The notes under the pieces are model-generated. The model saw only the letters and a program-made list of their open reading frames with translations. It was not told the DNA's origin and searched no databases. 64,000 nucleotides of DNA, taken from NCBI GenBank assembly GCA_964613395.1, contig CAZTGO010000010.1, positions 794-64,793 of the forward strand. Reading direction: 5' to 3'. This document shows positions 12,530 to 45,195 of the stretch, piece by piece. This DNA is from an uncultured Candidatus Poseidoniales archaeon (GTDB taxonomy: Archaea; Thermoplasmatota; Poseidoniia; Poseidoniales; Poseidoniaceae). The position numbers were made by a program, and so were the translations under genes. Every line of letters begins with the position of its first letter. Positions within the stretch are counted from its first letter, which is position 1.

Positions 12530-13825
12530 ATGATTGACGAGTATCTGGAAACGCTCAATGGCCTCGATGACCTGATTAAATGGGGTATTGCGGCATTAAC
12601 CGCTCTATTTATTTTGATGATATCTAATTTTATTATGCGGAAATATGTTCTCACCGCTATCCAAAAAACCAAGGCTCAGTGGGATGATGTGCTCTATTGG
12701 CCGACACGAAAGCGACTGAACATTTTCATCATGGTGGTTTCTCTTCACTTCGCTATGATTTGGATTTACGGTGATGGAGATGAATTGCTCGGTTCACTCA
12801 TGCCTTACATTTCCTCTACGTACATACTGCTTGCCGCTTCTCTTGCAAGTGTTGGCTTCAAGGTCATCTTACCAGCACTTCTCGACAGATATGCAAACCC
12901 TTCAACCGTGAAGGTATCAGGAAGTAATTCACTTCTGGTCTTCGTTTCAAGAGCAACGATTTGGGGCCTTGGAATTTACTTCGTGTCCAATGAACTGAAC
13001 CTGGAACTCTTTGGCATCGTTGCGTCATTAGCAGTATTTTCATTGATTATCGGTCTTGCCATGCAGCAAACGCTTGGGAACATCGTGAACTCATTCATGC
13101 TTGCACTCGACCAACCATTTGAGGTCGGCGACAGAGTGGAAGTCGAGGGGCATCTTGGTGCGATTGCATCCGTTGGTATCTTATCAACAAAAATACTGAC
13201 AAGAGAAGAGAATCTCGTTGTTATTCCGAACAATAGTCTTGTCAATTCAACAATCATCAATCACGCTCGTGGCGGTGGAGATGGTGTTGGTCGACGTATT
13301 TCACTTGTCCTTGACATTGGTGTTGAATATGACGAGGACATTGACCATGTGAAATTCGTCATCCTTGAACTCATGCGTGCTTGCCCTCTCCTGCTCAAAA
13401 TACCCGAACCTCGTGTTCTTCTCAATGAGCTTGGTGAATATGCGAAGATCTTCAGAATGTATGGATGGGTTGAGGATTACAGTGATGAATTCCTTGCAAG
13501 GGATTGGTTGCTGCAAAATATTGACTCTTACTTCGAACGTGAAGGTATCGGCATTGCATTCCCAACATCAGTTGAACTCAGTGAAACAAAGGCACCGGAT
13601 GTCAACTCTCAAGCAAAGATGGCACGAATACGCATTGCACGAATGAAGATGGCAAGGGAAAACCGAGAGATGTTAGCAGAGCGAGACGCTGCGAAGGAAG
13701 ACCTCGATTATATTTCGAACCGTCTCCTCAATCAAGATATTTCGAAGAAAGAACGAAAGTACCTTGAAAATGCTCAAGATGAACTACAACGTGTACTTAC
13801 ACAATTCGATGTTGGAAACGATTGA
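12530..13825 (+). CDS. Small-conductance mechanosensitive channel (MscS family)
   Basis: N-terminal TM helices, then LDQPFEVGDRVEVEGHLGAIASVGILSTKILTREENLVVIPNNSL (MscS beta-domain signature), and a C-terminal coiled-coil extension. Confidence 0.9.
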   Translation: MIDEYLETLNGLDDLIKWGIAALTALFILMISNFIMRKYVLTAIQKTKAQWDDVLYWPTRKRLNIFIMVVSLHFAMIWIYGDGDELLGSLMPYISSTYILLAASLASVGFKVILPALLDRYANPSTVKVSGSNSLLVFVSRATIWGLGIYFVSNELNLELFGIVASLAVFSLIIGLAMQQTLGNIVNSFMLALDQPFEVGDRVEVEGHLGAIASVGILSTKILTREENLVVIPNNSLVNSTIINHARGGGDGVGRRISLVLDIGVEYDEDIDHVKFVILELMRACPLLLKIPEPRVLLNELGEYAKIFRMYGWVEDYSDEFLARDWLLQNIDSYFEREGIGIAFPTSVELSETKAPDVNSQAKMARIRIARMKMARENREMLAERDAAKEDLDYISNRLLNQDISKKERKYLENAQDELQRVLTQFDVGND

Positions 13826-13841
13826 TTGAGGATAACTCAAT

Positions 13842-14468
13842 TCAATTGTTGTTTCGACTGGGTTGAACCCATACTTTGTGCTTGACCATCACGCTTTCGA
13901 ATAATTCAGACTCCAAATGGTGCTTGAGCCAGCCGTGCAAGGTTTTGAATGGCAACGCATCGAACCAAGACCGATCATGATTAGCAAATTGGCGAACAAA
14001 TGGAAAAACAGCGATATCAACAAGTTGCGTTGATTGACGAGAAGCGAGGACATGGTCAAAATCCAATAAAAATGTCAATGCACGTTCACGGTGATGAAAG
14101 GGGTCGACGTCCTCATAGCGATTCGGATATTTGTAACGGTCAAGATCACCTTTGAATTCATCTTCAAATCTGTCAATCCATTCTTGTTGTTGGTCAGCAA
14201 GCCAATGCTCTGGATCATTTTGCCTTAGGGCCCAAAGCATGATGTCATAGCTCTCGTCAATCACCTTGCCACCCGGAAGAACGAGAACGGGTACAGTACT
14301 TTTTGGTGAATGTTCGATTAAGGATGATGGTAAATCTCGAAGAAGAACTTCTCGGTGATTCCATTCAATTTTCGATTGAAACAATGCCATTCTCGCCCTC
14401 ATTGCATAAGGACATCTTCGGAATGAATAGAGAACTGGTAGAGATGGATCTTCGTTTTGAGTATGCAT
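13842..14468 (-). CDS. Glutathione S-transferase family protein (thioredoxin-fold N-domain with CPY motif)
   Basis: LYSFRRCPYAMRARMAL...TVPVLVLPGGKVIDESYDIMLWAL is a GST_N/Grx2-like pattern, followed by a helical C-domain. Confidence 0.75.
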   Translation of the reverse strand: MHTQNEDPSLPVLYSFRRCPYAMRARMALFQSKIEWNHREVLLRDLPSSLIEHSPKSTVPVLVLPGGKVIDESYDIMLWALRQNDPEHWLADQQQEWIDRFEDEFKGDLDRYKYPNRYEDVDPFHHRERALTFLLDFDHVLASRQSTQLVDIAVFPFVRQFANHDRSWFDALPFKTLHGWLKHHLESELFESVMVKHKVWVQPSRNNN

Positions 14469-14477: not shown

Positions 14478-15542
14478 TCACTCTGGAGGTGTTGGAGGTG
14501 TGTAGCCACCATCGATTGCCTCTTGCACGATGTTCATGTCGGACTCGACCATCATCTGAATCAGTTCTTCGAATGAAGTTTGGGGCACCCAATCGAGTTT
14601 TTCTTGGGCGAGGGCTGGGTCGCCAATGAGAAGGTCAACTTCTGCAGGGCGGAAAAACTTCGGATTTGTTTTCACTCGTACGACGCCGTTTTGATCTGTT
14701 GCAATCGTTTGAACCCCTTCGCCTGACCAAACAATTTCTAGACCAACATGGCTGAATGCGAGTGTAATCATGTCACGAACACTATGCGTTCGACCTGTTG
14801 CGACGACAAAATCTCCCGGTTCATCCTGTTGTAACATCCTCCACTGCATCTCAACATAATCTCCAGCGAAACCCCAATCGCGCTTTGCATCAACATTGCC
14901 AATCGTGAGGAATTCATCGATGCCTTTAGCGATTCGAGCAACGGTCATCGTAACTTTTCTTGTCACAAATTCAAGGCCTCGGCGAGGGCTCTCGTGGTTA
15001 AACAGAATACCAGTGCAAGCAAACATATTGTACGACTCACGATAGTTTCGTGTTATTTCAAAAGCGAAAACTTTGGCACATCCGTAGGGTGAGCGTGGGT
15101 GAAATGGAGTTGCTTCAGTTTGTGGTACCTCGTGAACTTTACCGAATTGCTCAGATGAGCCTGCTTGATAAAAACGGCATTCAGGGGCATTCTTTCGAAT
15201 AGCCTCAAGACATCGCAATGCTCCTAATCCTGTGATATCAGCTGTCATCATTGGAGAACGCCAAGATTCTGGGACAAAGGACATAGCACCCAAGTTGTAA
15301 AATTCATGTGGTTGTATTTCTTTTACCGCATTGTCAATGGAGTTTTGGTCAGCGAGGTCGCCGTTAAACAAGTGAAAATTTTCATGTCCAATCAGGTGAT
15401 TGATGAGACTGCGCCCACTGGTTGGTTGAGAAACCCGACGAACGAGGCCGTAAACGACATATCCCTTCTCAAGCAGAAGTTCTGCAAGATACGAACCATC
15501 TTGACCGGTAATCCCGGTAATGATGGCTTTCTTAGCGGCCAT
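14478..15542 (-). CDS. gmd: GDP-mannose 4,6-dehydratase
   Basis: KKAIITGITGQDGSYLAELLLEKGYVVYGLVRR, plus SSEQFG, YGCAKV and FNHESPRRG motifs. The ORF track extends to 15668, but the canonical N-terminus begins at the ATG at 15542 (MAAKKAIITG). Confidence 0.95.
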   Translation of the reverse strand: MAAKKAIITGITGQDGSYLAELLLEKGYVVYGLVRRVSQPTSGRSLINHLIGHENFHLFNGDLADQNSIDNAVKEIQPHEFYNLGAMSFVPESWRSPMMTADITGLGALRCLEAIRKNAPECRFYQAGSSEQFGKVHEVPQTEATPFHPRSPYGCAKVFAFEITRNYRESYNMFACTGILFNHESPRRGLEFVTRKVTMTVARIAKGIDEFLTIGNVDAKRDWGFAGDYVEMQWRMLQQDEPGDFVVATGRTHSVRDMITLAFSHVGLEIVWSGEGVQTIATDQNGVVRVKTNPKFFRPAEVDLLIGDPALAQEKLDWVPQTSFEELIQMMVESDMNIVQEAIDGGYTPPTPPE

Positions 15543-15660
15543 GCCTTTCCCACCCGCTTTTCTTTTTTTAATTCGGTGGTTCGAATCATCACCACTAGAA
15601 TTGTTGTGATAGGGGAAAAAGAATGGTTGATTTGAAAGGTTGAACCTCTTACCGCAAAAC
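15543..15660. promoter_or_regulatory. Divergent intergenic region between gmd and the GT-E1-JAMM operon; candidate TATA-like element for gmd
   Basis: On the minus strand TTAAAAAAAG (15572-15562) is centred about 25 nt upstream of the gmd ATG. That spacing fits an archaeal TATA box with a leaderless or short-leader mRNA. There is no experimental support. Confidence 0.3.
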
Positions 15661-16947
15661 ATGGGCAATGCAACAGAATCTCGACGACATGTTCTTGTCG
15701 TTCGTGGTTCATTTGCAACGCTTGGAGGTGCAGAGCGAGAACTACTGCAACTTATTCCGAAACTAGAGAATCACTGGAAGGTTTCTCTTGCAACCCTATC
15801 ATTTCCTGAGGATGCTCAGCAACTTCTGGAATCTACGACCGTAGAGGTATACAAGAGCAAGCACATATACAACCCTCCAATCAATGCGATATCGGAAGTC
15901 AGGAATATCGCTTCAAAACAGGCTCTTCAGTTGTGGAAAAGTGTAGAAATCCCATGGGATACTATCGATGTTGTCCACCTCTCAGTCTGTCGAGGAACAC
16001 TCGAAATTTTACCTCGCATACCCGGTCATATCCCAATTCATTATCATTGCCTTGAACCTCCACGTTGGTTGTACGAAGATGTACTCCATCGAAGGCTTGA
16101 TGGTACAATAAAGCGTCCTTCATTCATCACAAATCTTGCGTTTAGAAAACAGAAAAAAGACGATCAACGATTTGTGAAAATGTTGCTTGGTCGACCAAAA
16201 TCAACGCTCTCAGGCAATTCTCAATTTACAGCAAATCGATTAACAAGAATATACAAATTTACTCGACCATGCACGAAAGAAAATGGCCTACCTCCTGAAA
16301 GGGATGAGCAGAAAAGGCCGCTTCAATGTACCTTTCTTCACCACGCAATTGACCTTGGAAAATGGCCAGTTGAGTCATCAAATGATGAGCAAACGGCTAC
16401 GGCAAATTTGAATTTACCAGAGAAGTACGTTGCGACAATTGGCAAAATTTCCTTTGTGAAAGGAACGATGGAAAGTGTGGCCATGTTGGAGAATACCAAT
16501 ATCGCCCTCGTGCACATCGGAGGTGGAAATGAATCAGATAAACAGAAATTGACGCAATTTGCCAAAACAATTGGTGTGGATATCATCTGTATGCCACAAC
16601 TGACACAAGAGCAAATTTGTGGGGTCTTTCGAGGGTCAATTGCTGTGATTTCACATGCATACGGTGAACCCTTTGGGCTTACCCCAATCGAAGCACTCTC
16701 AATTGGTGTTCCACCCGTCATGGTACGTGATGGTGGCTTTGTTGAAACGATGAGTCTCCTTGATGAGTCGTTCTTGTTTGACAGAAACAATTTGGAAAGC
16801 TGGCATCGTGGACTCGAACGTGCTCAAAACATTGAACATAGAGACCGTTGCTTAAAATCTGGTCGAGCATTTGTCGATGCTCATTTTTCACTCGACCATG
16901 AAGCCATTCAACTTTCAAGATTGTTGAATGAGCAACTCAATTCATGA
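15661..16947 (+). CDS. Glycosyltransferase, GT4 (GT-B fold) family
   Basis: N-terminal VLVVRGSFATLGGAEREL and C-terminal GEPFGLTPIEALSIGVPPVMVRDGGFVE (the E-x7-E type GT4 motif). The track ORF begins at TTG 15640; an ATG lies at 15661. Confidence 0.85.
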   Translation: MGNATESRRHVLVVRGSFATLGGAERELLQLIPKLENHWKVSLATLSFPEDAQQLLESTTVEVYKSKHIYNPPINAISEVRNIASKQALQLWKSVEIPWDTIDVVHLSVCRGTLEILPRIPGHIPIHYHCLEPPRWLYEDVLHRRLDGTIKRPSFITNLAFRKQKKDDQRFVKMLLGRPKSTLSGNSQFTANRLTRIYKFTRPCTKENGLPPERDEQKRPLQCTFLHHAIDLGKWPVESSNDEQTATANLNLPEKYVATIGKISFVKGTMESVAMLENTNIALVHIGGGNESDKQKLTQFAKTIGVDIICMPQLTQEQICGVFRGSIAVISHAYGEPFGLTPIEALSIGVPPVMVRDGGFVETMSLLDESFLFDRNNLESWHRGLERAQNIEHRDRCLKSGRAFVDAHFSLDHEAIQLSRLLNEQLNS

Positions 16948-17606
16948 TGGTTTATATCCACTGGAACAACAACATCTGTATGGTTTTGAAAAAGCAAGTG
17001 CTTATTGTTGGTTGTGGAGGTATAGGGAGCAATGTTGTGGATGCGTTGTACAGAGCTTGTCACGCTCTACAACTTCCATGTACCATCAATGTCATGGATG
17101 GTGATATCGTCTCATCAACCAATCTTGGTCATCAACGATTTCAGTCAACCGATATAGGCCAAACCAAAGTGAGTGTAATTGAAAGGAGATACAACGAAGA
17201 GGGGTCACTGGTCAATGTGATTGGTATTGAAGATGATTTGATCGATAAAGAACAATTGATTGGATATGATTTCATCATCGTTGCAGTGGACCGCCCTGAA
17301 CCACGTCGTATGGTCCATCAACAAGAGGCCCCTTGGATTGATTTACGATGCAGCGGCGATGGATTCATGGTTCTCACATACCAGACTGACAAAAATCTGG
17401 TCGAGGCAATGACCCCGAACCATCCACCAAAAAGTTGTCAACTCGAGGGTGCCCTTGATATTGGAAATATCGAATTCGGTTTTCTCATCTCTGCGGCACA
17501 TGGGGCACAGTGGACCCTCCAACATTTACGTGGTTTTTCAGGACCTCATGAAAGCATAGGAAGCATCACGTCAGGTTCCTTTCAATTCCCGGTGGTGAAC
17601 CAATGA
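16944..17606 (+). CDS. ThiF/MoeB/E1-like adenylyltransferase, minimal (220 aa)
   Basis: VLIVGCGGIGSNVVDAL (nucleotide loop), MDGDIVSSTNLGHQRF (the D-x-D-x-V-x2-S/T-N-L-x-R/H-Q block), GQTKV and VAVDRPEPRR (Mg/ATP Asp-Arg block). The ATG overlaps the GT stop (ATGA). Confidence 0.85.
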   Translation: MMVYIHWNNNICMVLKKQVLIVGCGGIGSNVVDALYRACHALQLPCTINVMDGDIVSSTNLGHQRFQSTDIGQTKVSVIERRYNEEGSLVNVIGIEDDLIDKEQLIGYDFIIVAVDRPEPRRMVHQQEAPWIDLRCSGDGFMVLTYQTDKNLVEAMTPNHPPKSCQLEGALDIGNIEFGFLISAAHGAQWTLQHLRGFSGPHESIGSITSGSFQFPVVNQ

Positions 17607-18193
17607 TTCCTCCAGGACTCGTAGATATTGGTATTCGTGACATTGATTGGATGTATGCTTTAGAACAAGCGGCTCAAAAAAATGTTGAAGATGATATTTT
17701 ACTAGCTGTACAGGAATGTTGTGCTCAGCATGACCGGTGGGATGGCGTGTACATTCTTTCCTATTTTGCCTGCCTTGAGACATCTGTCCTCATCGATGCT
17801 GATGACCGAGTCTTCATCGACTGGGGCCTTCCTGGGAGCGTTCATTTAAGGCAACCAGTAGGAGCAAAGATTCCGTTCAAATTATGGGTTCACACCCATC
17901 CAAGAATGGACACGTATTGGAGCATGACTGATAAAAACAGTTTAGCATTCTCCACGTTGCTGCTTCAGCATGCATATGTTCTAGGGAAACAAGGCATCAA
18001 ATGCACACAAAATGCTTCTTTGTTGGAGGTCGAGCATGAAAAATCTATTTCCAATGAAGCACCTCTTCAGTTTTGGTCTGAAGAAGAAACTGAATCATGG
18101 AGCAGGTGGTATGATGCTCGAAACATAGAGTTTAACCAACAAGACTCAATTGCCAACATATGTTGGCTTTCGTCCCTCAATCAAAGCCGATAA
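17603..18193 (+). CDS. JAB/MPN (JAMM) metallopeptidase domain protein
   Basis: An exact JAMM motif H-T-H-P-R-M-D-T-Y-W-S-M-T-D (HxHx7SxxD), with an upstream candidate Glu in VQECC. The ATG overlaps the E1-like stop (ATGA). Confidence 0.8.
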   Translation: MIPPGLVDIGIRDIDWMYALEQAAQKNVEDDILLAVQECCAQHDRWDGVYILSYFACLETSVLIDADDRVFIDWGLPGSVHLRQPVGAKIPFKLWVHTHPRMDTYWSMTDKNSLAFSTLLLQHAYVLGKQGIKCTQNASLLEVEHEKSISNEAPLQFWSEEETESWSRWYDARNIEFNQQDSIANICWLSSLNQSR

Positions 18194-20206
18194 GCCTTCC
18201 AATGCATCATTGGTCGAGAATATTTTCTCAAGTCCATTCAATTCAGAAGAAAGCCCTTCGTGTAAGGGAGATGATGCAGTGTTGATGAGATCATGAGCCA
18301 TTCTCAGACCAACTGGAGCAGTGAATTTTAATGATTTCATTTGTCTTGTAACAATCTTATCCGCTTCATCGAATCCTTGAGGACATTGATGATTAAGTAA
18401 GGATTCCATATTTTCATCCGAATAGAAAGACTGTGCAAACTGAACCACTTCAGATTCCGGATTATTTGGTTTTCCTTTGTACTTTAATTCTGGTTTCCCT
18501 TGAATCGATTCGATGCAAGAATCCACATCTGAAACCTCAACGAGATGTGTGAGCAATCCAACATCGTACGCAGTTTTTGCATCCATGAAATTACCTGCAA
18601 GCACAGCCCACCGAGCAACTGCTTTACCGCACAAACGTGCTGGGCGTTGAGTACCACCTAAACCAGGGTAAATTCCAATACTTGTTTCAGGGAATCTAAA
18701 TTGTGTTTTTCGAGTGCCGATTCTATAATCACACGCCATAGCTAATTCAAGTCCGCCTCCGAGGGCAAGTCCAGTTGTGAGAGCAATTGTTGTTTTCTTG
18801 GAGTTTTCGAAGGCATTAAGGACATCGTGACCGTTGGCAGTAAAATCGTAAATATCCTGAAAATCATCTGAACGAATCTTGTCAACGAAGAATTTGACAT
18901 CTGCACCAGCGACAAAGGCCTTACCTGCTCCATCAAGCACAATTGTATGCACATCAGGGTTGGATTCTAATGCATTAAATTGTTTCATGAGTTGGTCGAC
19001 CACTTGAACATTAAGAGCGTTCATTGCTTCTGGTCGATTGATGGTGAGTGTGGCAATCCCCCCTTCAATTGTCGTGTCAACGAAGGTAAATGCCCAAGGT
19101 TGATCACCTTGGTCGATGAAAAATTGTGGTACGTCCCAACCATGTTTTGCTATGTTTCGATAAGCAAGTGCCATCTCAAGCGAACGCTGAACACCAAGAC
19201 GATTCATCAATTCAAATGGGCCAAGGGCCCAACGAAGTCCAACCTTTGCACCTCTGTCAACGTCTTCAATTGAACAAACACCTTCGTCCACAATCTGTGC
19301 TGCGACACCAAAGACCACGCCAAGAAGACGTTCTGAGATGGTAGCATACTGTTCTTCTGTGTATGATTCGTCTTCTTGGATATCCCACATGTGTTGGCCT
19401 TCGACCAAATCTCTCAAATTTTGAGCACCGGTGTATCTCGGTGTTGACAACTGAGTAGCGAGATAATCGGTAGAGTGCAATGCGATCGGTGGACCGGTCA
19501 AATTCATGAGACCAAACGGCCCTAGGCCAATTCGGAATGCTTTCCTTGCAACTGCATCAATTTGCGCTGTTGTTCCAACACCTTCCTCGAGAAGATAACA
19601 AGCCTCATTCAACCAAGGCACAAAAAACCGATTGACAACGAATCCAGGTCGATCTGCGCACGTGATAACAACTTTGCCAAGTCCTTTGCAGTACTGCACA
19701 ACTCTGTCAAGTGTCTCTTTTGATGTGCTTTTTGCTGGTATGACTTCTACCAGTCTGTTTTTTGCTGGATGATAAAAGAAGTGAAGGCCCACAAATCGAT
19801 CTGGTCGTCCAGTCGCTTGTGCTAGTTCGTTAACAGAAAGAGACGATGTATTCGATGCGAGGATTGTATGAGGAGAACATACGCCATCCAATGTTGCAAA
19901 CACCTGTGTTTTGATGTCAAAATCCTCGAACACAGCCTCGATCACTAAATCAGTGTCTTTGTTTGTATTTTCAACACCGACAACACCTGAAATTCTCGAT
20001 TGGATGGCATCAACCTGCTCTTGTCGGAAAATCCGACGTTCAATCGCTTCACTCAAAAAATCGGAAATGATGGATTGGCCACGTTCAACCCATTGAGACT
20101 CCCTGTCAACCATTTCAACGTCAAATTCCTCTTGTGCTGTTTTTTGTGCAATGCCTGAACCCATGTTTCCTGCACCGATGATTGCAACCCTTTGAATTGG
20201 TTCCAT
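18146..20206 (-). CDS. Fused 3-hydroxyacyl-CoA dehydrogenase (N-terminal) / enoyl-CoA hydratase (C-terminal)
   Basis: VAIIGAGNMGSGIAQ (NAD Rossmann) and the HAD C-domain, then ITINRPEAMNALN...GAGKAFVAGADVKFF and GGGLELAMACDYRIG (crotonase fold). The track ORF starts at TTG 20233; the ATG at 20206 is preferred. Confidence 0.9.
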   Translation of the reverse strand: MEPIQRVAIIGAGNMGSGIAQKTAQEEFDVEMVDRESQWVERGQSIISDFLSEAIERRIFRQEQVDAIQSRISGVVGVENTNKDTDLVIEAVFEDFDIKTQVFATLDGVCSPHTILASNTSSLSVNELAQATGRPDRFVGLHFFYHPAKNRLVEVIPAKSTSKETLDRVVQYCKGLGKVVITCADRPGFVVNRFFVPWLNEACYLLEEGVGTTAQIDAVARKAFRIGLGPFGLMNLTGPPIALHSTDYLATQLSTPRYTGAQNLRDLVEGQHMWDIQEDESYTEEQYATISERLLGVVFGVAAQIVDEGVCSIEDVDRGAKVGLRWALGPFELMNRLGVQRSLEMALAYRNIAKHGWDVPQFFIDQGDQPWAFTFVDTTIEGGIATLTINRPEAMNALNVQVVDQLMKQFNALESNPDVHTIVLDGAGKAFVAGADVKFFVDKIRSDDFQDIYDFTANGHDVLNAFENSKKTTIALTTGLALGGGLELAMACDYRIGTRKTQFRFPETSIGIYPGLGGTQRPARLCGKAVARWAVLAGNFMDAKTAYDVGLLTHLVEVSDVDSCIESIQGKPELKYKGKPNNPESEVVQFAQSFYSDENMESLLNHQCPQGFDEADKIVTRQMKSLKFTAPVGLRMAHDLINTASSPLHEGLSSELNGLEKIFSTNDALEGLSALIEGRKPTYVGN

Positions 20207-20244
20207 GGGATACCCGAAAGAAAAAGACTTCAAGAATGTGAGGG

Positions 20245-21489
20245 CTATGAAATTTTGAGAACTTCATTCAAAGCGTTTGAGAGTGTAGTGCAATACGTGC
20301 TTTTTGAAAACTGTTCAATGACCGACTCATCCAGCTGGAAGGGTTGTCGAAGTCCATCTCGTTGCTCCCATTTTTGATGCACTTCTTTCAAATGTTTCAC
20401 CCAAAGTGAAACATCTTTACCATCAATGCACATTTCATCGGGGACGAATTCATTGTGTGCTGCAAAATTTGAACACAAGACAGGTAACCCAGCCATCATA
20501 GCCTCAAGAGGAGGATAACCAAAACCTTCTGCAGCAGAAGGGAAGAGCAACACCTCAGAATTCCATCGCATGCAGTTAAGTGAAGAATCATCAATTGGTC
20601 CGTTATGATACAACCATTGTATACCAGCATTTCTTGCTTCCTCGGCAATGTCGAGACCCGTTTCATGACAAACCTTGGATCCTACATGATGAATGACAAT
20701 ATCTTGAAGAGATTCCGACTCTAATTTTCGTAAGCATTCGATAAGAAATTTCAATCGCTTTCGTGGTTCATTGCTTCCGACGACAAGGAGGTTACACTTT
20801 TTTTTGTCAAATTGTTGTGGAAAATTGTTTTTCGATTCCTCGAACTTATACTCCTCGGCGTTCACAGGGAATGCGATGACAGTCGTTGGAATGTCTGGGA
20901 AATATTGCTGGCAAAATCGTTGGGTAGCCTCCGAATTGCAAAAGAAAAAATCTGCTCGGGATAATCCTTTTTTCAATTTTTTAAGGTCGCGTTTGCGAAG
21001 TAAACCTGGATGACGTTGTCCGATACTCACCTCGCCTTCTGGAAAATCTTCGACCGTTGGGAAAATGTGAAACAAATCATGCACATAGATACCAACGGGA
21101 ATGTTAGAATGAAGCGGTATGAGGTGGCTTTGTTCCTGGTCTGTAACAAGCGCTAGGTCTGAGGATTGAGGAATATTGAGGTGTTTTTTTACTCGCTTCG
21201 GGTGAGAATACCACCGATTTCTTAATCTCGCTACACTTGATAGTTCTGATGTTGAGCCGTATTCCAACGTCGTGCTGTGCTTCCATCCTTTGACTTCGTC
21301 GTTCTGTAAAACTTCAAGCATATCGTGATAACCCTTGCCGAGGCCAGAGAATTTGCTCATCGCACCTCCGCGAATAAGCGTAATGCGTCGGCTCATCAGT
21401 AAGAATGGAGGGGCTTTCCTACTTGAATCAAACACATATTTGGTCAATTTGGAGTTGATTTCACTTACTTTACTAATGAAAGCACTCAT
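20245..21489 (-). CDS. Glycosyltransferase, GT4 family
   Basis: FPSAAEGFGYPPLEAMMAGLPVLCSNFAAHNEFV. The start is uncertain: TTG 21498, ATG 21489, or ATG 21396 (MSRRITLIRGG). The last would leave a more usual divergent promoter gap. Confidence 0.85.
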   Translation of the reverse strand: MSAFISKVSEINSKLTKYVFDSSRKAPPFLLMSRRITLIRGGAMSKFSGLGKGYHDMLEVLQNDEVKGWKHSTTLEYGSTSELSSVARLRNRWYSHPKRVKKHLNIPQSSDLALVTDQEQSHLIPLHSNIPVGIYVHDLFHIFPTVEDFPEGEVSIGQRHPGLLRKRDLKKLKKGLSRADFFFCNSEATQRFCQQYFPDIPTTVIAFPVNAEEYKFEESKNNFPQQFDKKKCNLLVVGSNEPRKRLKFLIECLRKLESESLQDIVIHHVGSKVCHETGLDIAEEARNAGIQWLYHNGPIDDSSLNCMRWNSEVLLFPSAAEGFGYPPLEAMMAGLPVLCSNFAAHNEFVPDEMCIDGKDVSLWVKHLKEVHQKWEQRDGLRQPFQLDESVIEQFSKSTYCTTLSNALNEVLKIS

Positions 21490-21519
21490 ATAAGCCAAAC
21501 ATGACGGTGGTTTGTTCCT

Positions 21520-36534: not shown

Positions 36535-38175
36535 TCAGGCACCTCCTTCAAATCCACCGAGGATAGGTAAGATCACGGAATCAAACATTTGGTTTGTCCA
36601 ATCGCTCATCATATCGAGGGCAATCCATGGCAAGATACCAAACAGGATGGTGAAAAGAGCGAGAATAAGCATTGCAAATTTCTCAGCGTTTGTGATATCT
36701 GGTATCGCATGGCCAGCCATTGAGGCAGGAGGTTGTGTCTCTTCTCCACCTTCGAAAATTGTACGTTGCATCGACCAGAGATAGTACGCTGCTGTGACGA
36801 CAAGAACGAGCAAAGGACCAGCCATCCACCAAATACTCCAACCTTCTGCGACGATGAAATACCAGAGTGCGATGAACATCATAATTTCAGCCACGAACCC
36901 TGCGAGAAGAGGCAATCCAAGTGAGGCCATCCAAGCGAACATCATTGAGGTAGCGAGCCAAGGCGAGTGTTTTGCCATGCCACGCATGGCACCAATCTCC
37001 ATCGAATGATAGTGATGCTTGAATGCACCACAAACAGCGAAGAGCATAGGACTGATGATGCCGTGTGCAAACATCATGAAAAGAGCTGCAGCCCACCCAA
37101 GTGGTTGCATGGTCGCAACACCGATGAGAATGACACCCATGTGGGATACTGATGAGTATGCGACCATTTTCTTAAGATTGGTTTGCCCAAGACAGACAAT
37201 CGCACCCCATACAAGTGACACCATACCAAACAACATGAGGGCGAGTTGGAAGGATTCCATTGCGTGCGGGAAAAGTGAAAACGGAAGTCGGAACATACCG
37301 TAAGCACCCATTTTCAACATAACACCAGCTAGCAACATCGATCCACCTGTTGGGGCTTGAACGTGTGCATCTGGTAACCAAGTGTGGAATGGCACAGACG
37401 GTAATTTGACGAGGAATCCGAGCATGAGCATAACGAAGAGGATCTTTTGAACACTTTCGCCTAAGAACCAACCGTTTGTGTTTGCAATCATCGATGCATC
37501 GATAATCGTTGGTATGTCAAACGACCTGTTGGTCATTGAACCAGCATAATTTAGCGGCGTGGTTGTATCTTGAAGGAAATACAATGTCACTAAGCCGAGC
37601 AACATGATAACTGAGGCTGAAAATGTGTAAATGAAGAACTTTTGAGATGCATATTTGCGATCATCTCCTCCCCATTTGAGGATGAGGAAAAACATCGGGA
37701 TGAGTGTTAATTCCCAGAACACATAGAACATAAACAAGTCGAGTGCTACGAAAACACCGATTAGTGCACCACCCATCATGAGAAGAAGCGGGAAGTATGT
37801 CGCTGCTGATTTCTCATGCCATGTCGCGATAATTGTCACTGGAAGAAGGAAGGTTGTGAGCCATACCATTGGGAATGAAAGAGCATCAAGGCCAACACTC
37901 CAGTAAATCCCTAATGATTCGATCCAAAGATAACGTTCTTGGAATTCATATGTGTTGAAATTGATACCTTCCCATCCTTCAAAATCACCAAAGTATTCGA
38001 AGAACATCCCTGTTGTTAATGCGAGCATAATCAGCGAAAAGACGAGCGAAGCCATTCGGATGATTGGTCCAACACGCTGTTTTTTCTCCTCTGTTAAGTT
38101 TGACACAAACATAAGTAAAATCAAACTTGATGCAAGTGGGAAAGCGATGAGAGGTAGAGAAATGTAATCGGTCAA
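36535..38175 (-). CDS. nuoM: NADH-quinone oxidoreductase subunit M
   Basis: PFHTWLPDAHVQAPTGGSMLLAGVMLKMG is the NuoM/ND4 signature. The TTG start overlaps the nuoL stop (TTGA). Confidence 0.9.
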   Translation of the reverse strand: MTDYISLPLIAFPLASSLILLMFVSNLTEEKKQRVGPIIRMASLVFSLIMLALTTGMFFEYFGDFEGWEGINFNTYEFQERYLWIESLGIYWSVGLDALSFPMVWLTTFLLPVTIIATWHEKSAATYFPLLLMMGGALIGVFVALDLFMFYVFWELTLIPMFFLILKWGGDDRKYASQKFFIYTFSASVIMLLGLVTLYFLQDTTTPLNYAGSMTNRSFDIPTIIDASMIANTNGWFLGESVQKILFVMLMLGFLVKLPSVPFHTWLPDAHVQAPTGGSMLLAGVMLKMGAYGMFRLPFSLFPHAMESFQLALMLFGMVSLVWGAIVCLGQTNLKKMVAYSSVSHMGVILIGVATMQPLGWAAALFMMFAHGIISPMLFAVCGAFKHHYHSMEIGAMRGMAKHSPWLATSMMFAWMASLGLPLLAGFVAEIMMFIALWYFIVAEGWSIWWMAGPLLVLVVTAAYYLWSMQRTIFEGGEETQPPASMAGHAIPDITNAEKFAMLILALFTILFGILPWIALDMMSDWTNQMFDSVILPILGGFEGGA

Positions 38176-40709
38176 GACATCACCCCCCAGATGAGAGCAA
38201 ACAACATCAGTGTACCAACCGCAGCCATGAGGATGTAATCTCGAGCAGAACCAGTTGTCAACTTTCTCAACGATGTCGAAGCGCTTTGAGATGTAGATTC
38301 AATGGTCTTGATAGCCCCGTCAATGAATTTGCTGTCTGCATGGGCTGCTTTGAGTGAAAACGCAGCCACAATTTTGAGCATCGCCATGTCGTAATAATGG
38401 TCGAAGTACAATCGATTCTGCAATGCTCTTGAAAGACTTGAGGTGGCAAAAGCTGAGTTGTCCCATGAATATCGTCCTTTGATTGCTGCATTGAGCATCA
38501 AGATTGGCGTAAACCACGGTTTTGCAGTTTCTCCCTCATCCAAAGCTCCACCGTAGAGTGAGAGTGCCAAACCAGGTCCAACGATTGCACCGAGGAATAT
38601 GGCGATGTATGTTAGGGTGAAGAAGAACATGTCATGGTTGGCAAACGCATGCCCAAGTTCGTATCCAATTCCTTCGAAAAGTCCCTTCTCCGACATGAGG
38701 GCGTATCCAGAATCTGGTGCCCAGTGGGTAAAGCCCATGCCTGCGAAGAGGATTCCGCCTAAGGTCACAAAAGTGAGCGTGAAAAGTGGTATTTTGATCC
38801 ATGTATTCGTTGGACCAACGTGTGCTGCAACTTCGTTGTTTGGTGAACCTGCAAAGGTCTTGAGCCACATTCTCGACATGTAAAATCCAGTCATGGCTGC
38901 ACCGAGGAGAACACATGCTGCAGGGAAGAAGAATCGTGGGTCTTCAAGGCCAACTCGCCATGCGTTTGCAATGATTCCTTCCTTGGACCAAAATCCACCG
39001 ATGAGAGGGAAACCCATGATTGAGAGTGAACCAACCAGCATAGCCGTAGCCGTAATTGGCATCTTGGAGGCTAAACCGCCCATATTTTCCATCGATTGTG
39101 CATCGAAGTGGTCGTCATGGTGGTCATCGTGTTCGTGTTCTTCGTAGGTTTTGCCCTTGATTTTTGCAAGAACAATATCAAGTTCTGGAACGTTGATTGT
39201 GCCGTTACCGTCAAGGTCAACAGCTTTCATGAGGTCACCCATTTCCCAAGGTGGAAGGTCAGCAACTTCTGTATTCTTTAGCGCAGTTTGGAATTCAAAC
39301 ATGTCGATTTCTCCCGAGCCATCGAGGTCAATGGTTTTGAAAAATTCAAATGTGCTCAATTTCTTTGAAGCCAAGTAATCCGATAACATGTAGAGTTCCT
39401 TGGGTGTGTGATGATGGTCGTCATGATGCAAGTGGTGATGTGCATGATGGACTTCATGGATTACCGCACCACTTGCCATGAACAGCATACCCTTTGCCAT
39501 TGCGTGATTGAAGAGATGGAAGAGTGCTGCACCAAAGGCGATGATGACGATGTAATGTGCGTCGTCGTCGTGATGCCAGTCAAGTGAGTTTGCTAGCCAC
39601 AATGCACAGCCAAGGCCCGTGAAGATGTAAGCAAGTTGCGACATGGTCGAATAGGCGAGTACTTTCTTGAGGTCCATCTGAACAAAAGCAATACTTGCTG
39701 CCATCACAGCGGTGATTCCACCAATGCTTGCAATAATGAAGGCGAGGTCAACAAGTTCACCATGCATTGCTTCAGCACCAAAGAATGGGAACATTCGAGC
39801 GACAAGGTAGAGGCCTGCGTTCACCATTGTTGCTGCGTGAATGAGAGCAGAGACCGGTGTTGGACCTTCCATTGCATCTGGGAGCCAGACATGCAGTGGG
39901 AATTGTGCAGATTTACCAACTGCCCCAATGAACATCATTCCAAGAGCCCACTGAAGAGAAGCAGGGTCAACGGCTGCGATATTATCTGAATCAAAGACAA
40001 CTGCATAATCAAGGGAGCCAAACAGATGCCAAAGCATAGCAAGACCGACCATCAGGAACACGTCACCAACACGGGTTGTGAGGAAAGCCTTCTTTGCGGC
40101 ATATGCAGCACTAGGCCGTTCGTAATAGAAGCCGATGAGCAAATACGAACAAAGACCCATTAATTCCCAGAAGATGAACAACCATAGGAATGAATCTGCG
40201 AGAATCATACCGAGCATTCCTGCACAAAAGAGCACGAATTCTGCATAGAATCGATGATTTCGATTATCGTTGATCGGGTCGGTGTTCATGTATCCGATCG
40301 CAAAGGTGTTGATGAGCAAGCAAAGGAAAGATGCGATGAACAACAACATGACGGTGATGTGGTCGATGTAGAGGCCAAATCCAAATGAAATTTCTGTTGT
40401 TGTTGCTCCGCCATTCCACATCGCAGAGGAGAACCAGTCGAACACGTGCAGGGCACTTTTACTGTCATCGCCATAGGCTCCGATGTAGTCTTTGATGAGC
40501 AAAAGAGCAAGGAGGAGGCTCGTAGCCATAGTAACGAGTGCGAAAATTCCACCTTCTTTGAACGTGGAAACCCAAACTTTGTTGCCATTGAACAATCTTC
40601 CGAACAGGAGAATGATTGGGAAGGCAATCATTGGAAGGAAGACAATGTATGGTGCAAATTCAATAACACTGCTGTGGATAGTTTCTGTTGTACCTGTTGA
40701 ACCCATCAT
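38172..40709 (-). CDS. nuoL: NADH-quinone oxidoreductase subunit L, enlarged (845 aa) by an EF-hand/His-rich insert
   Basis: FPLHVWLPDAMEGPTPVSALIHAATMV (NuoL/ND5 signature), ...ASGAVIHE [insert] ...MGGLASKMP, and a long C-terminal region with extra TMs. Confidence 0.9.
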   Translation of the reverse strand: MMGSTGTTETIHSSVIEFAPYIVFLPMIAFPIILLFGRLFNGNKVWVSTFKEGGIFALVTMATSLLLALLLIKDYIGAYGDDSKSALHVFDWFSSAMWNGGATTTEISFGFGLYIDHITVMLLFIASFLCLLINTFAIGYMNTDPINDNRNHRFYAEFVLFCAGMLGMILADSFLWLFIFWELMGLCSYLLIGFYYERPSAAYAAKKAFLTTRVGDVFLMVGLAMLWHLFGSLDYAVVFDSDNIAAVDPASLQWALGMMFIGAVGKSAQFPLHVWLPDAMEGPTPVSALIHAATMVNAGLYLVARMFPFFGAEAMHGELVDLAFIIASIGGITAVMAASIAFVQMDLKKVLAYSTMSQLAYIFTGLGCALWLANSLDWHHDDDAHYIVIIAFGAALFHLFNHAMAKGMLFMASGAVIHEVHHAHHHLHHDDHHHTPKELYMLSDYLASKKLSTFEFFKTIDLDGSGEIDMFEFQTALKNTEVADLPPWEMGDLMKAVDLDGNGTINVPELDIVLAKIKGKTYEEHEHDDHHDDHFDAQSMENMGGLASKMPITATAMLVGSLSIMGFPLIGGFWSKEGIIANAWRVGLEDPRFFFPAACVLLGAAMTGFYMSRMWLKTFAGSPNNEVAAHVGPTNTWIKIPLFTLTFVTLGGILFAGMGFTHWAPDSGYALMSEKGLFEGIGYELGHAFANHDMFFFTLTYIAIFLGAIVGPGLALSLYGGALDEGETAKPWFTPILMLNAAIKGRYSWDNSAFATSSLSRALQNRLYFDHYYDMAMLKIVAAFSLKAAHADSKFIDGAIKTIESTSQSASTSLRKLTTGSARDYILMAAVGTLMLFALIWGVMS

Positions 40710-40715
40710 ACCACC

Positions 40716-41018
40716 TCAATTCTTTAACACATTGACGTCGTCCAATGTGATTGATTCATGCTTTCCATACATGGCAAGGAAAATTGCGAGTCCGATAGCA
40801 ACCTCACTTGCGGCGATAGCAATAGCAAAGAGTGTGTAGACCCATCCCGTTGTGTCTCCGTGATGAACCGCTGCTGCTGCAAATTGGAGATTTGCTGCAT
40901 TGAGCATCAATTCGATGCACATGAGTACGATAATGGCATTCTTCCGGGTAAATGCACCTGCAAGACCAATGATGAAAAGAAGTGCGGCGAGGCCTGATAC
41001 CCATGATGGATCGATCAC
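40716..41018 (-). CDS. nuoK: NADH-quinone oxidoreductase subunit K
   Basis: 100 aa with 3 TM and LMCIELMLNAANL (the conserved Glu-containing helix). The GTG start overlaps the upstream stop. Confidence 0.9.
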   Translation of the reverse strand: MIDPSWVSGLAALLFIIGLAGAFTRKNAIIVLMCIELMLNAANLQFAAAAVHHGDTTGWVYTLFAIAIAASEVAIGLAIFLAMYGKHESITLDDVNVLKN

Positions 41019-41284
41019 TCTTCCTCACCTCCAAATTCCCATAGGAGATTTTCCATTCGTTCATCTCGAACGAGGTAAGCAGCACCAATCATTGCAACTG
41101 CCATCAAAATACCGAGTGCTAGCAACGGCAAACCCCATTCGTTGAGGAGATCATCGGCTAACATCGATGTTGTAGGTGCGTCGTCACTTCCTTCTTGCCA
41201 AACTGCGTCGGCACTTACGGTAGCGATTAAAATAAAACCTAGGGCCAAAAGACCCATTCGGGTCATGAGAGAAAGAAATTTCAT
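41015..41284 (-). CDS. nuoJ: NADH-quinone oxidoreductase subunit J, C-terminal part (J2)
   Basis: 89 aa with 2 TM, and LLALGILMAVAMIGAAYLVR resembles the last NuoJ helix. The ATGA overlap with J1 and its position between J1 and K support the call. Confidence 0.7.
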   Translation of the reverse strand: MKFLSLMTRMGLLALGFILIATVSADAVWQEGSDDAPTTSMLADDLLNEWGLPLLALGILMAVAMIGAAYLVRDERMENLLWEFGGEEE

Positions 41285-41556
41285 TCAAAATCCTCCTCTA
41301 GAATTTGTCTTCTTGTCAGCATGATACCGAACAAGACGACAAGTCCAACACTCGCTAGATACACGAGAATTTGGATTGCAGCAAGGAACTCCGCACCCAT
41401 AAGGATGAATATTCCTGACACTGCCATGAAACAGAAGATGAGCGAGAGCATGGAATGGGCAACGCGTTGGGCGTAAATGAGACCGAGTGCACCCACAATT
41501 GTGATGGTGGCAAACAAAAAGAAGACTGCAGATTCAACTGTGGTTGCTATGTCCAT
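41281..41556 (-). CDS. nuoJ: NADH-quinone oxidoreductase subunit J, N-terminal part (J1)
   Basis: MDIATTVESAVFFLFATITIVGALGLIYAQRVAHSMLSLIF...AEFLAAIQILVYLASVGLVVLF is the NuoJ/ND6 pattern. The track ORF's 55-aa extension overlaps nuoI and was rejected. Confidence 0.8.
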   Translation of the reverse strand: MDIATTVESAVFFLFATITIVGALGLIYAQRVAHSMLSLIFCFMAVSGIFILMGAEFLAAIQILVYLASVGLVVLFGIMLTRRQILEEDFE

Positions 41557-41557
41557 C

Positions 41558-42520
41558 TCAGTTCCCCTCCTTTGCTGCCTTCTTTTCACGCTTGGTGCGT
41601 TCTTTGATAGCACGCTTTGCAAGTTCTTCGTCAACCGCTTCTTGATGAACAGAGGGGAGGACCCGTGTTCGACTTGCGTCGAACCATAGATCTTGGCGAG
41701 TAAATCCTGACATTCCATCATATTCGTTGGTCATGAAAAACGAAGTAAAGCCGCATGCTTCCATGCACAAACCACAAAACATGCATCGGCCAATGTCGAT
41801 TCGTCCTGAAACGATTTGATCATCTGCCGTAAGAAGGTCGGTTTGCTCAACCACTTCTTCGGAACCTGTATCATTCCAACGAATTGTTGCGGTCGATGAG
41901 GAGAGGTCGAGGACTTCGCCGAAACGCCATTCTTGTGGAACATCATCGTGGGCTGTGACGTGATTAAAACCGAGTTGAGCTTCTGCAACATCGTCGAGTT
42001 TCTTTGCTGCAAATTTACCAACCTCGAGGTCAACACCGTATCCGCCATATTCTCCTTCTGCACTGTCGAGAACATCGACTCTGAGTTCGGTTGTCATGTG
42101 CAAACAGTCATTTGGACAAATGTTGACACACATTTTACAAGCAGTACAAGTTTCCCAAATGACACCAATTCGACCATTGTAATTGCCTGGAACGAAGAGC
42201 CATGGTTCCATGTCTTCAAGTCGCTCGTAAGGATATTGAACTGTTTGAGGTTTCCAGAGTGTCGGTTTGAGGTCTGATGTCACTCTGTCCGGTGCGAATT
42301 CTTGTTTCTCAACATCGTTCATCACAGCAGATGCTTTCGCACGTGCCCGACTACCGTCATCGAGGAATTCTGGGTGTGAAGTGTTATGATATGCCCCCAT
42401 CTTCTTTCCGAATCGCTTCCCTAAGAACGGAAATGTTCGCAATGCGGTAATTAGTGTAATCTTAAATGGGTACCAAAAAAGGTTTCTGAAATTTGGTCTT
42501 GCATGTGGGTGCGTTGGCAT
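41558..42520 (-). CDS. nuoI: NADH-quinone oxidoreductase subunit I (2x[4Fe-4S]), enlarged (320 aa)
   Basis: CTACKMCVNICPNDC and CMFCGLCMEACG. These two ferredoxin-type motifs are separated by about 110 aa instead of the usual about 30. Confidence 0.85.
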   Translation of the reverse strand: MPTHPHARPNFRNLFWYPFKITLITALRTFPFLGKRFGKKMGAYHNTSHPEFLDDGSRARAKASAVMNDVEKQEFAPDRVTSDLKPTLWKPQTVQYPYERLEDMEPWLFVPGNYNGRIGVIWETCTACKMCVNICPNDCLHMTTELRVDVLDSAEGEYGGYGVDLEVGKFAAKKLDDVAEAQLGFNHVTAHDDVPQEWRFGEVLDLSSSTATIRWNDTGSEEVVEQTDLLTADDQIVSGRIDIGRCMFCGLCMEACGFTSFFMTNEYDGMSGFTRQDLWFDASRTRVLPSVHQEAVDEELAKRAIKERTKREKKAAKEGN

Positions 42521-42529
42521 TTGTTCACC

Positions 42530-44041: not shown

Positions 44042-44047
44042 ATCACC

Positions 44048-45187
44048 TCAGCGGTCTGTCTCCCCGATACATGGGTCAAAACTACCCATAATCGCTGGAA
44101 TGTCAGCGACTTTGTAACCAATCATTGTTTTTGCAACATATGGAATTGTGATGAACATCGGTGAACGAATCGACAACCGATAGGGGTTCTTTCCGCGGCC
44201 ATCGCCGCCACCTTGAATGTAGAATTGGGAGGCACCACGAGTACATTCGTAGTTGCTGAACCCTGTGGCACCCTCCGGGGCACGTGTTGGGGCCTTGGCA
44301 ATGATCATTTCATCACCGTTGGCATAATTCGTGTTTTTCCCGCCTGGAATTTTCTCAATCGCATCGAGAATCATGCGGCATGATTGGCGCATTTCTTCCA
44401 TTCTGACTCTGTATCTGTCGTAGCAGTCCGCACCTTTGACCGAGGTTGGTTTCTCGACTGCTGGTTCCCAGTCAACTTGATCATACACAGAATAAGGATG
44501 GGCCCATCGAACGTCGTAATTGACGCCTGCTGCCCGAATGTTTGGTCCGGTAACACCTGCATTGACCATGTCCTCAGCCTGTGCATAACCTACACCTTGA
44601 AGTCGCACAAGCCAAATTGTCGATTCATCGAGCATCATCTCATATTCATCGATTCGCTTCTCAAAAAGTTTGATTTTCGCAATCAGTCTGTCCGCAAACC
44701 CAACTGGGATATCACGCTTGACACCACCGACACGAGGATAATTGTAATGCATTCTCGAACCACCTAGTTCCTGAAGCAAGTCAAGGAACATTTCTCTGTC
44801 TCGCATGCACCATGTCATGAGCGTCAGGCTGCCGATGTCCGGACCATATGCACCCAACCACATGAGGTGGGAGGCAAGACGTTGACATTCTGCAGCAATA
44901 AGTCGGATATATTCTGCTCGTTCGGGGACTTCAACTTCGAGTAAATCTTCCGCAGCATAGATGTACGAATTCGCCCATGTCATCGCACTCACATAACAAA
45001 GACGGTCGCAGTAAGGCGTGACTTGTGTGAAATCTCTTGATTCACAAATCTTCTCTACGCCTCGGTGAATGTATCCTAACTCAGCTTCTGTGTCGACAAC
45101 AGTTTCACCGTCGACTTTGACACGAAGCGTCCACAACCCATGGGTCATCGGATGCTGAGGGCCCATTGTAATCCACATTTGTGCCAT
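44048..45187 (-). CDS. nuoD: NADH-quinone oxidoreductase subunit D
   Basis: MGPQHPMTHGLWTL...YCDRLCYVS...C-terminal SFDPCIGETDR. Confidence 0.95.
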   Translation of the reverse strand: MAQMWITMGPQHPMTHGLWTLRVKVDGETVVDTEAELGYIHRGVEKICESRDFTQVTPYCDRLCYVSAMTWANSYIYAAEDLLEVEVPERAEYIRLIAAECQRLASHLMWLGAYGPDIGSLTLMTWCMRDREMFLDLLQELGGSRMHYNYPRVGGVKRDIPVGFADRLIAKIKLFEKRIDEYEMMLDESTIWLVRLQGVGYAQAEDMVNAGVTGPNIRAAGVNYDVRWAHPYSVYDQVDWEPAVEKPTSVKGADCYDRYRVRMEEMRQSCRMILDAIEKIPGGKNTNYANGDEMIIAKAPTRAPEGATGFSNYECTRGASQFYIQGGGDGRGKNPYRLSIRSPMFITIPYVAKTMIGYKVADIPAIMGSFDPCIGETDR

Positions 45188-45195
45188 GATATCAC

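Follow-up and report, generated by a model that had tools for sequence, protein, structure and literature searches.

An E1-like/JAMM gene pair of Poseidoniaceae archaea is the cellular, carrier-less branch of a family shared with archaeal viruses

Introduction

What does an E1-like adenylating enzyme act on when it is encoded together with a JAMM peptidase and no ubiquitin-like protein (Ubl) lies beside them? This question is raised by a three-gene cassette at positions 15661-18193 in DNA of an uncultured Candidatus Poseidoniales archaeon of the Poseidoniaceae (contig CAZTGO010000010.1 of assembly GCA_964613395.1); the window in this text is the whole 64-kb stretch of that contig that was analysed. 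An earlier reading made from the sequence alone (the sequence-only reading) described three plus-strand genes for a glycosyltransferase (GT), an E1-like protein and a JAMM protein, chained by ATGA overlaps at 16944-16947 and 17603-17606, with no Ubl carrier gene in cis. The chain was confirmed on the open reading frames (ORFs), and the claim of a missing carrier also held. The interval between the flanking gmd and fadB genes contains no small ORF and no beta-grasp ORF or ORF ending in Gly-Gly (GG), and ORF and profile searches of the whole window found no small beta-grasp or GG-ended carrier ORF. The sole free-standing GG-ended ORF was considered as a carrier and rejected, being a NuoJ-like membrane fragment. 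The features of the cassette are as follows.

15661-16947, plus strand: GT4-type glycosyltransferase (GT1), 428 amino acids (aa); Pfam Glycos_transf_1, 1.3e-14
16944-17606, plus strand: minimal E1-like (ThiF-superfamily) adenylating enzyme, 220 aa; Pfam ThiF, 3.7e-18
17603-18193, plus strand: divergent JAMM/MPN+ metallopeptidase, 196 aa; JAMM motif and Pfam Prok-JAB, E=0.072
16944-16947, plus strand: ATGA stop/start overlap of GT and E1, clade-specific; seen in the sequence, 4-nucleotide (nt) overlap in 10/57 loci
17603-17606, plus strand: ATGA stop/start overlap of E1 and JAMM, kept throughout the cellular family; 4-nt overlap in 83/85 loci

We found that the cassette is the cellular, carrier-less branch of a family shared with archaeal viruses. 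The reading that we prefer, and regard as somewhat probable, is that it represents a compact module for Ubl activation and trimming, belonging to a family found in Poseidoniaceae, in a small number of further uncultured lineages of archaea and in magrovirus-like viruses, and that the partner of the host enzymes is encoded in trans.

Conservation of the locus

When one genome per GTDB species was scanned with a sequence pattern, the E1 gene was detected in 147 species. The named E1 homologues belong to Poseidoniaceae or Poseidoniales (Marine Group II archaea), and the 80 records listed from the E1 scan were all Poseidoniales or metagenome-assembled genomes (MAGs) of unclassified Euryarchaeota, Methanobacteriota and Thermoplasmatota. 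Scans of the GTDB genomes with single sequences, either the window E1 or the fusion protein P0392 described below, gave no match. The window proteins were mapped onto 86 Poseidoniaceae loci, and 70 complete loci were used for counts of gene presence. E1 and JAMM are adjacent in every locus with DNA, and 83 of 85 loci show a 4-nt overlap of the two genes. A further gene of 78-79 aa (s78) follows JAMM in 62 of the 70 complete loci and overlaps it by 4 nt in 70 of 74; its loss is confined to the clade that the window forms with L001, L002 and L007-L011. The GT gene is present in 50 of the 70 complete loci and absent from 20, which are distributed over several clades and include the closest GTDB species (L007, 87% E1 identity), where most of gmd is lost too. 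Since E1 and JAMM are universal, s78 is found in 62 of 70 loci and GT is dispensable, the conserved translationally coupled unit is E1-JAMM-s78. Within the window's clade, the ratios of nonsynonymous to synonymous substitution rates (dN/dS) are 0.05-0.15 for GT, E1 and JAMM (0.10-0.15 for GT), indicating purifying selection, and those of E1 and JAMM are 0.05-0.12 in L007, which contains neither GT nor s78.

Two MAGs contain two copies each of the syntenic gmd...fadB locus from different clades (L014 and L063 in CASIAW01, L075 and L083 in JAYYDY01). This points to mixed bins and not to paralogues.

The glycosyltransferase

The GT protein exceeds the Pfam Glycos_transf_1 cut-off (54.6 versus 26.4 bits), and its assignment to GT4 (GT-B) stands. 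It had been proposed that this protein is conjugated through its C-terminus by E1 and released by JAMM. ATGA coupling of GT and E1 in the window's clade and the presence of GT4 genes near the module in two lineages speak for this proposal, but the related loci largely refute it and we consider it extremely unlikely. The three-gene linkage is not conserved, as 20 of 70 loci lack GT, among them that of the closest species, while the E1-JAMM pair itself is universal. The GT/E1 overlap occurs in 10 of 57 loci only, against 83 of 85 for E1/JAMM, and the two genes are otherwise 6-60 nt or more apart. The overlap also needs the first ATG as the GT start (an alternative start is the TTG at 15640), and that N-terminus is conserved within the window's clade only. 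When the GT C-termini of relatives were compared, as the sequence-only reading had suggested, they were not conserved; they stop 2-8 residues past the last helix and finish in almost any residue, and a tail this short and variable is unlike that expected of a conserved E1 substrate. In addition, the GT4 gene directly upstream of E1 in L180, an unrelated cellular lineage (L180:2-727), encodes a different paralogue, 35% identical (1e-39) to the second GT of the window (GT2, 20245-21498) and not to GT1. GT2 passes the Pfam GT4-conflict cut-off (31 versus 26 bits). Based on these comparisons, we suggest that the GT4 gene, although co-transcribed, is a neighbour that the module can do without, located at the margin of a region of glycosylation genes, and not the substrate. 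For annotation, the GT/E1/JAMM arrangement would accordingly be a neighbourhood accident rather than a glycosyltransferase-priming system.

Fusion loci and other cellular lineages

A search with a JAMM profile over 1.84 billion cluster representatives returned 143 proteins at E<=1e-3. Two proteins, P0384 and P0392, are fusions of E1 and JAMM and carry the E1 motifs of the family. Both fusion loci share the same order, in which a small GG-ended ORF precedes the E1-JAMM fusion and an 85-86-aa helical, s78-like ORF follows it. The small ORFs terminate in ...VQIVPSLQGG-H (L170) and ...VDLVRPLVGG-SC (L173), and they are homologous to each other (E=5e-6). Because the two enzymes are fused here and their genes overlap by 4 nt throughout the cellular family, E1 and JAMM are functionally tied. 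The order E1-JAMM-s78 is found beside HisRS and FtsZ in L174/L175 and beside enolase, RNase H and GcvH in L184/L185, and likewise in L179/L180 and L182.

Viral relatives

A more distant JAMM clade, whose members have N-terminal extensions, is viral. A scan of IMG/VR with its alignment (A5) revealed 335 JAMM relatives on viral contigs, and 80 of these loci were fetched. Of the 80 loci, 66 encode an E1 of ~186 aa just upstream of the viral JAMM on the same strand, with a match to Pfam ThiF at 5.9e-20 and to the profile of host E1s at ~1e-31. The conserved neighbours are a class II ribonucleotide reductase, an ATP-dependent DNA ligase, an RFC-like clamp loader and a Cpn60/TCP-1 chaperonin, placing the module inside the replication module of these viruses. 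Many of the contigs are 85-100 kb long, with a G+C content (GC) of 35-37%. Magroviruses contain a chaperonin within the replicative cluster, and those of group B also a ribonucleotide reductase (PMC5434244). Since the chaperonin and reductase content agrees with that description, we regard the contigs as magrovirus-like. Host-type JAMM genes were essentially absent from viral contigs. The cultured-phage records of INPHARED contained no relative of the viral JAMM, and for E1 gave distant ThiF-like matches only (26-34% identity). In an unrooted neighbour-joining tree of E1, a viral clade (n=52) was separated from a cellular clade comprising 18 host sequences, L174 and the two fusions. The host E1s are 29% identical to the viral, 40% to the fusion and 48% to the L174 sequences.

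Three kinds of side observation concern the viral loci. First, a 74-aa protein with CxxC...Hx3H, of C2H2 type by eye, is encoded in L093 (L093:10150-10371) and 40 other viral loci (alignment A6), and in some viral genomes its gene lies between E1 and JAMM. The A6-aligned proteins end in an invariant GG plus exactly one residue, while six other members have no GG; the GG-X protein may be a second substrate of the same enzymes. Second, the next gene after the viral JAMM encodes c6 (L088-L167; e.g. L093:8971-9273), a conserved helical protein of ~75-125 aa (median ORF 91 aa) that starts with MVSIREIRR, in most members ends in ...FGEWN plus a few acidic residues, and has a histone-fold look by eye. 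Third, several contigs of bacterial MAGs in GTDB carry magrovirus-type carrier and zinc-finger genes (L168, L169 and L176-L178; NZ_NZTP01 'Altibacter sp. EAC109' and NZMJ01 'Maricaulis sp. IN14'), most likely by bin contamination with contigs of archaeal viruses.

The carrier protein in relatives

A carrier profile derived from the fusion loci matched 30 of the 80 viral loci, with E down to 6e-14. The viral carrier has 67 aa and contains N(E/D)TGHT, HPTHW and AIVGG, the last followed by 0-2 variable residues. Among the relatives, carriers measure 67-80 aa and have 0-2 residues after the C-terminal GG. Comparison with ThiS/MoaD gave matches that ran end to end but were weak (Pfam ThiS, 0.0014-0.0044 in 2 of 14 members; NCBIfam thiS, 0.043; PDB 4n6e_B, 1.2). 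A carrier explains the E1-JAMM pair independently of GT in the fusion loci and in the viruses, an outcome that the sequence-only reading had named as fatal to its idea; the window itself contains no such carrier. Two parts of the picture, the conserved s78 gene and the viral connection, lay outside the view of that reading. Its second proposal, a sulfur carrier encoded elsewhere that feeds a thio-sugar pathway, survives in part. A carrier in trans is plausible in light of the GG-ended, ThiS/MoaD-like proteins of fusion and viral relatives, but the thio-sugar or sulfur part finds no sulfur-related neighbour in any locus.

The E1-like protein

The E1-like protein scored 66 bits against Pfam PF00899 (ThiF), above the 28.1-bit cut-off. 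The NCBIfam models gave a different picture. The best of them, PRTRC_ThiF, reached 62 bits against a cut-off of 145, and the ThiF, MoeB, TcdA, UbaA and MoeZ models scored 20-49 bits against cut-offs of 152-647 (UbaA, 26 against 450). These scores bear out the view that this is an E1-superfamily enzyme and no orthologue of housekeeping ThiF, MoeB, TcdA or UbaA. Family members are 186-220 aa long. Across 73 host, viral and fusion sequences, G23xGGIG28 (the nucleotide loop in the window E1), D52, D54, N60, Q64, K75, D116, R121, R135 and W190 are at least 95% conserved, with G23xGGIG28, D52, D54, K75 and D116 present in all 73, and Cys165, in the motif SCQ, is invariant (73/73). This cysteine sits ~50 residues past the Mg-binding Asp, which we take to be roughly the distance at which the catalytic cysteine follows in ThiF and Uba4-type enzymes. 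Cys165 is the candidate for the thioester or acyl-persulfide cysteine of the enzyme.

When the E1 family profile was compared with PDB sequences, the matches were MccB (9e-12), Uba1 (1e-8), MoeB (4e-6), Cap2 (2e-5) and TcdA (4e-5), and they mostly covered the Rossmann half alone. In PADLOC the Cap2 profiles matched, again in their E1 part only (profile positions ~300-450).

These matches bear on another chemistry, in which a thiocarboxylated carrier would serve the synthesis of a thio-sugar or cofactor, as in QbsCDE and CysO/Mec+, or E1, like TcdA and MccB, would have a peptide or a non-protein molecule as its adenylation substrate. MccB ranks first among the PDB sequence matches, gmd and GT genes adjoin the pair, and a tail of GG plus 1-2 residues trimmed by JAMM would be the QbsE/QbsD pattern. 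However, E1 lacks the peptide-clamp domain of MccB and only its Rossmann half aligns, and no rhodanese, sulfurtransferase, cysteine-desulfurase or sulfur-metabolism gene neighbours the module in any of the loci examined. Moreover, the linkage to gmd and GT is dispensable and the viral context is DNA replication, not metabolism. On balance, we consider such a role very unlikely.

Some E1 proteins of a GT-less subclade have a 140-aa N-terminal extension (L003:8001-8435; P0031 and P0045 type). We considered the extension of the P0031 type as a fused Ubl and rejected it, as it matched no family or profile, the carrier profile included.

The JAMM protein

The third gene had been credited with a perfect JAMM motif, and this was borne out. 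The window protein has the E...HxHx7Sx2D zinc/catalytic motif, and its residues E59, H97, H99, S107 and D110 do not vary within the family (100 of 100 members). The match to Pfam Prok-JAB is marginal (E=0.072). In the AlphaFold2 model, with a predicted local distance difference test (pLDDT) score of 89.8, three N-terminal helices precede the predicted JAB core, HxH lies at a strand end and SxxD at a helix start. A Foldseek search of the PDB with this model listed Rpn11, CSN5 and BRCC36 on top, followed by cytidine deaminases, all weak matches (E ~0.03, TM ~0.3). Against models of viral proteins, the best match was E=7e-9 to unnamed proteins, and named JAB, MPN or deubiquitinase proteins were also listed, lower. 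Judged from its motif, we suggest that gene 3 is a divergent yet intact JAMM protein. Its last ~15 residues are a clade-specific extension, arising because the downstream s78 gene was lost, so that the ORF runs 15 codons into fadB antisense.

The s78 protein

Outside the window's clade, s78 is present in every cellular lineage examined, the fusion loci included, and it is absent from the viral branch loci. Extended s78 profiles found no homologue in the window or in the loci of its clade. The s78 model consists of four helices without strands (pLDDT 66) and gave no fold match, and searches of Pfam, NCBIfam, PHROGs and PADLOC gave no family match. We therefore rejected s78 as the missing carrier, since it is all-helical, has no GG and matches no known fold. 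It was also examined as an equivalent of the small viral proteins c6, c14 and c13, and hhalign found no relation.

A further possibility is that s78, although not a beta-grasp protein, is the E1 substrate through its C-terminus, in the manner of CD-NTase priming by Cap2 and its reversal by Cap3. Its coupling to JAMM in 70 of 74 loci and its wide presence in cellular lineages agree with such a role, as does the C-terminus, which in distant lineages has the same layout of Trp, 0-5 residues and a terminal Ala. Within Poseidoniaceae, however, the last residue differs (A, V, S, Q or I), the fusion loci hold a GG-tailed carrier besides s78, the viral branch lacks s78 altogether, and the model is of moderate confidence. 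The idea is weakened above all because s78 was deleted in the window's clade while E1 and JAMM remain under selection, and we regard it as quite unlikely.

In one Poseidoniaceae subclade, a gene for a protein of ~315-320 aa (x5) lies between s78 and fadB (L061:7398-8360; also L034, L047, L050, L058, L063, L065, L068, L070 and L076). Its N-terminus has Cys/His-rich motifs, searches of Pfam and PADLOC gave no match, and x5 may belong to the module as another component or be one of its targets. PADLOC likewise gave no matches for GT2, s78, the carrier and the viral JAMM.

Proposed mechanism and location of the partner

Domain identities, conservation, gene linkage and fusion, the viral homologues and the GG-tailed carriers are observed, whereas each catalytic step, and the identity of the substrate in the window genome, is inferred. 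In this scheme, the carrier would first be made with 0-2 residues beyond its C-terminal GG, as it is in the relatives. JAMM would trim the GG-X tail to expose GG, and probably reverse conjugates too. This step has precedents in the action of QbsD on QbsE, of Mec+ on CysO and of HvJAMM1 on SAMP conjugates. The minimal E1 would then adenylate the exposed C-terminal Gly, and Cys165 would bind the carrier in thioester linkage, ready for transfer without an E2 as in archaeal SAMP/UbaA. In cellular members s78 might serve as an all-helical accessory protein, dispensed with in the window's clade. Because only the two enzymes are left in the window, their partner must be encoded in trans, and it may be either a host Ubl or the carrier of an infecting magrovirus. 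The simplest reading places a host Ubl at another site of the genome.

Several observations weigh against this scheme. The beta-grasp assignment of the carrier comes from weak sequence similarity to ThiS only. In the viruses the carrier gene is found in 30 of 80 loci and is not adjacent to E1, lying 3-7 kb upstream on the same strand. The carrier profiles found no match in the window, in the 86 Poseidoniaceae loci (best E=0.34) or in other cellular loci, and no carrier lies within the DNA available around L174/L175, L179/L180, L182 and L184/L185. A GTDB pattern scan for the viral-type carrier, which is blind to a divergent host carrier, found three contigs of one 'Altibacter' MAG only, and these are probably viral contamination. 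In E1, the Arg of the canonical NLxRQ motif has no match (the window motif is NLGHQR, and His63 aligns with the MccB Arg); its position is occupied by His in host E1s and by Tyr in viral E1s, and the chemistry may depart from that of classical E1s. Finally, the occurrence of GT4 genes near the module in two lineages, in differing arrangements, makes some link to glycosylation possible.

If the partner is instead viral, the host pair, having no carrier of its own, would act on the magrovirus carrier during infection. This might be a defence, in which JAMM strips conjugates or E1 diverts the Ubl, or the virus might exploit the host machinery; s78 and the nearby GT4 would then be lineage-variable accessories. 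Several findings fit this possibility: host and viral E1/JAMM form one family, the carrier is encoded by viruses and not by host loci, and the E1-JAMM pair is under purifying selection even where s78 and GT are gone. The locus also adjoins a variable region, where genes for a methyltransferase, a resolvase and an HNH nuclease are found in some genomes. However, the locus itself is syntenic, fixed and not island-like, with uniform composition (GC 0.435 for the cassette and 0.456 for the window), and PADLOC recognized no defence family beyond generic E1 similarity. Host and viral E1s share ~29% identity and fall into separate clades, so cross-recognition is not assured, and a host carrier elsewhere in the genome is simpler. 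Based on these considerations, we judge a viral partner to be rather unlikely, and we retain the reading of a Ubl module whose partner is encoded in trans, most simply by the host. Were the viral partner real, it would mean a host-virus conflict over Ubl conjugation in the most abundant planktonic archaea of the ocean.

Comparison with known systems

The family resembles SAMP/UbaA/HvJAMM1 in being archaeal and in combining an E1-like enzyme, a JAMM protein and a ThiS/MoaD-type GG carrier without E2 or E3. In contrast to UbaA, its E1 is shorter (186-220 aa) and forms a separate lineage, as the UbaA model score given above reflects. Its genes are tightly coupled whereas those of the SAMP system are scattered, s78 is added, the carriers of relatives are GG-X precursors, and the family is also viral.

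With QbsC/QbsD/QbsE and CysO/MoeZ/Mec+ the family shares trimming by JAMM past the GG of a small ThiS/MoaD-like carrier before E1-like activation. QbsE bears extra residues after its GG, a parallel to the GG-H and GG-SC tails of the fusion loci. Unlike those systems, ours has no rhodanese or sulfur neighbour, and its gene contexts are replication modules in the viruses, and glycosylation or housekeeping genes otherwise.

Type II CBASS (an anti-phage signalling system based on cyclic oligonucleotides), with Cap2 and Cap3, likewise pairs E1 with JAB in a setting of virus-host conflict, and Cap2 profiles gave the sole PADLOC matches. However, the 220-aa E1 of the window corresponds to the E1 Rossmann part only, and E2 domain, CD-NTase and effector are absent here. 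PRTRC cassettes, which are found on mobile elements, likewise combine several genes, among them those for a ThiF-related minimal E1, a JAB-like protein and small proteins, and PRTRC_ThiF is the best NCBIfam match. Against this, the score is 62 versus 145 bits and the cassette has no other PRTRC component and no ParB; the NCBIfam models, PRTRC A-F included, matched none of JAMM, s78 and the carrier.

Prokaryotic operons with JAB+E1 fusions, multi-Ubl and E2-like proteins have been described (Iyer, Burroughs and Aravind 2006, PMC1779556). The present family is like them in that E1 and JAB are fused or stand beside small Ubl genes without a metabolic link; it differs in its E1 and JAB clades, in the absence of E2-like and multi-Ubl proteins, and in its limitation to archaea and archaeal viruses.

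Pfam, NCBIfam, PHROGs and PADLOC hold no model for this JAMM clade, the carrier or s78. In the literature searched, we found nothing that combines Poseidoniales with 'ubiquitin-like' and no description of the family, and the words ThiF, JAB and ubiquitin are absent from the text of the magrovirus and archaeal-virus papers searched. The Ubl-E1-JAB type of system is well known; new here are the lineage-specific variant, the carrier-less host form and the link between host and virus.

In the surface ocean, Marine Group II archaea and magroviruses count among the uncultured microbes and viruses of greatest abundance, and to our knowledge very little is known of their biology. The compact Ubl/minimal-E1/JAMM family reported here, previously unannotated, extends over 147 Poseidoniaceae species and hundreds of magrovirus-like contigs. 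It provides a case in which ubiquitin-like modification encoded in viruses of archaea can be tested, together with a host version that would have shed its carrier, and it bears on the evolution of E2-independent Ubl systems and on conflict between archaea and their viruses.

Neighbouring genes

The surroundings of the cassette in the window comprise the following features.

18146-18193, no strand assigned: convergent overlap of 48 nt between the 3' ends of JAMM and fadB, the apparent scar of the s78 deletion from locus comparison
14478-15545, minus strand: gmd (GDP-mannose 4,6-dehydratase), divergent syntenic neighbour given as context; Pfam GDP_Man_Dehyd, 2.9e-129
18146-20233, minus strand: fadB-like gene, convergent; ORF
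20245-21498, minus strand: second GT4 glycosyltransferase (GT2), beyond fadB; Pfam Glycos_transf_1, 4.3e-15, and GT4-conflict, 31 bits

The stretch from the MscS channel gene to GST/gmd is a variable insertion spot in relatives (L001:671-4802; L006:1-5456), where a D12 methyltransferase, a resolvase, an HNH nuclease and assorted hypothetical proteins are inserted; in the window this spot is empty (13825-13842). Elsewhere, the window carries an operon of nuo genes (NADH:quinone oxidoreductase) and, on the minus strand, four very large ORFs of 994, 1527, 1555 and 906 aa (38172-46961 and 47060-62612).

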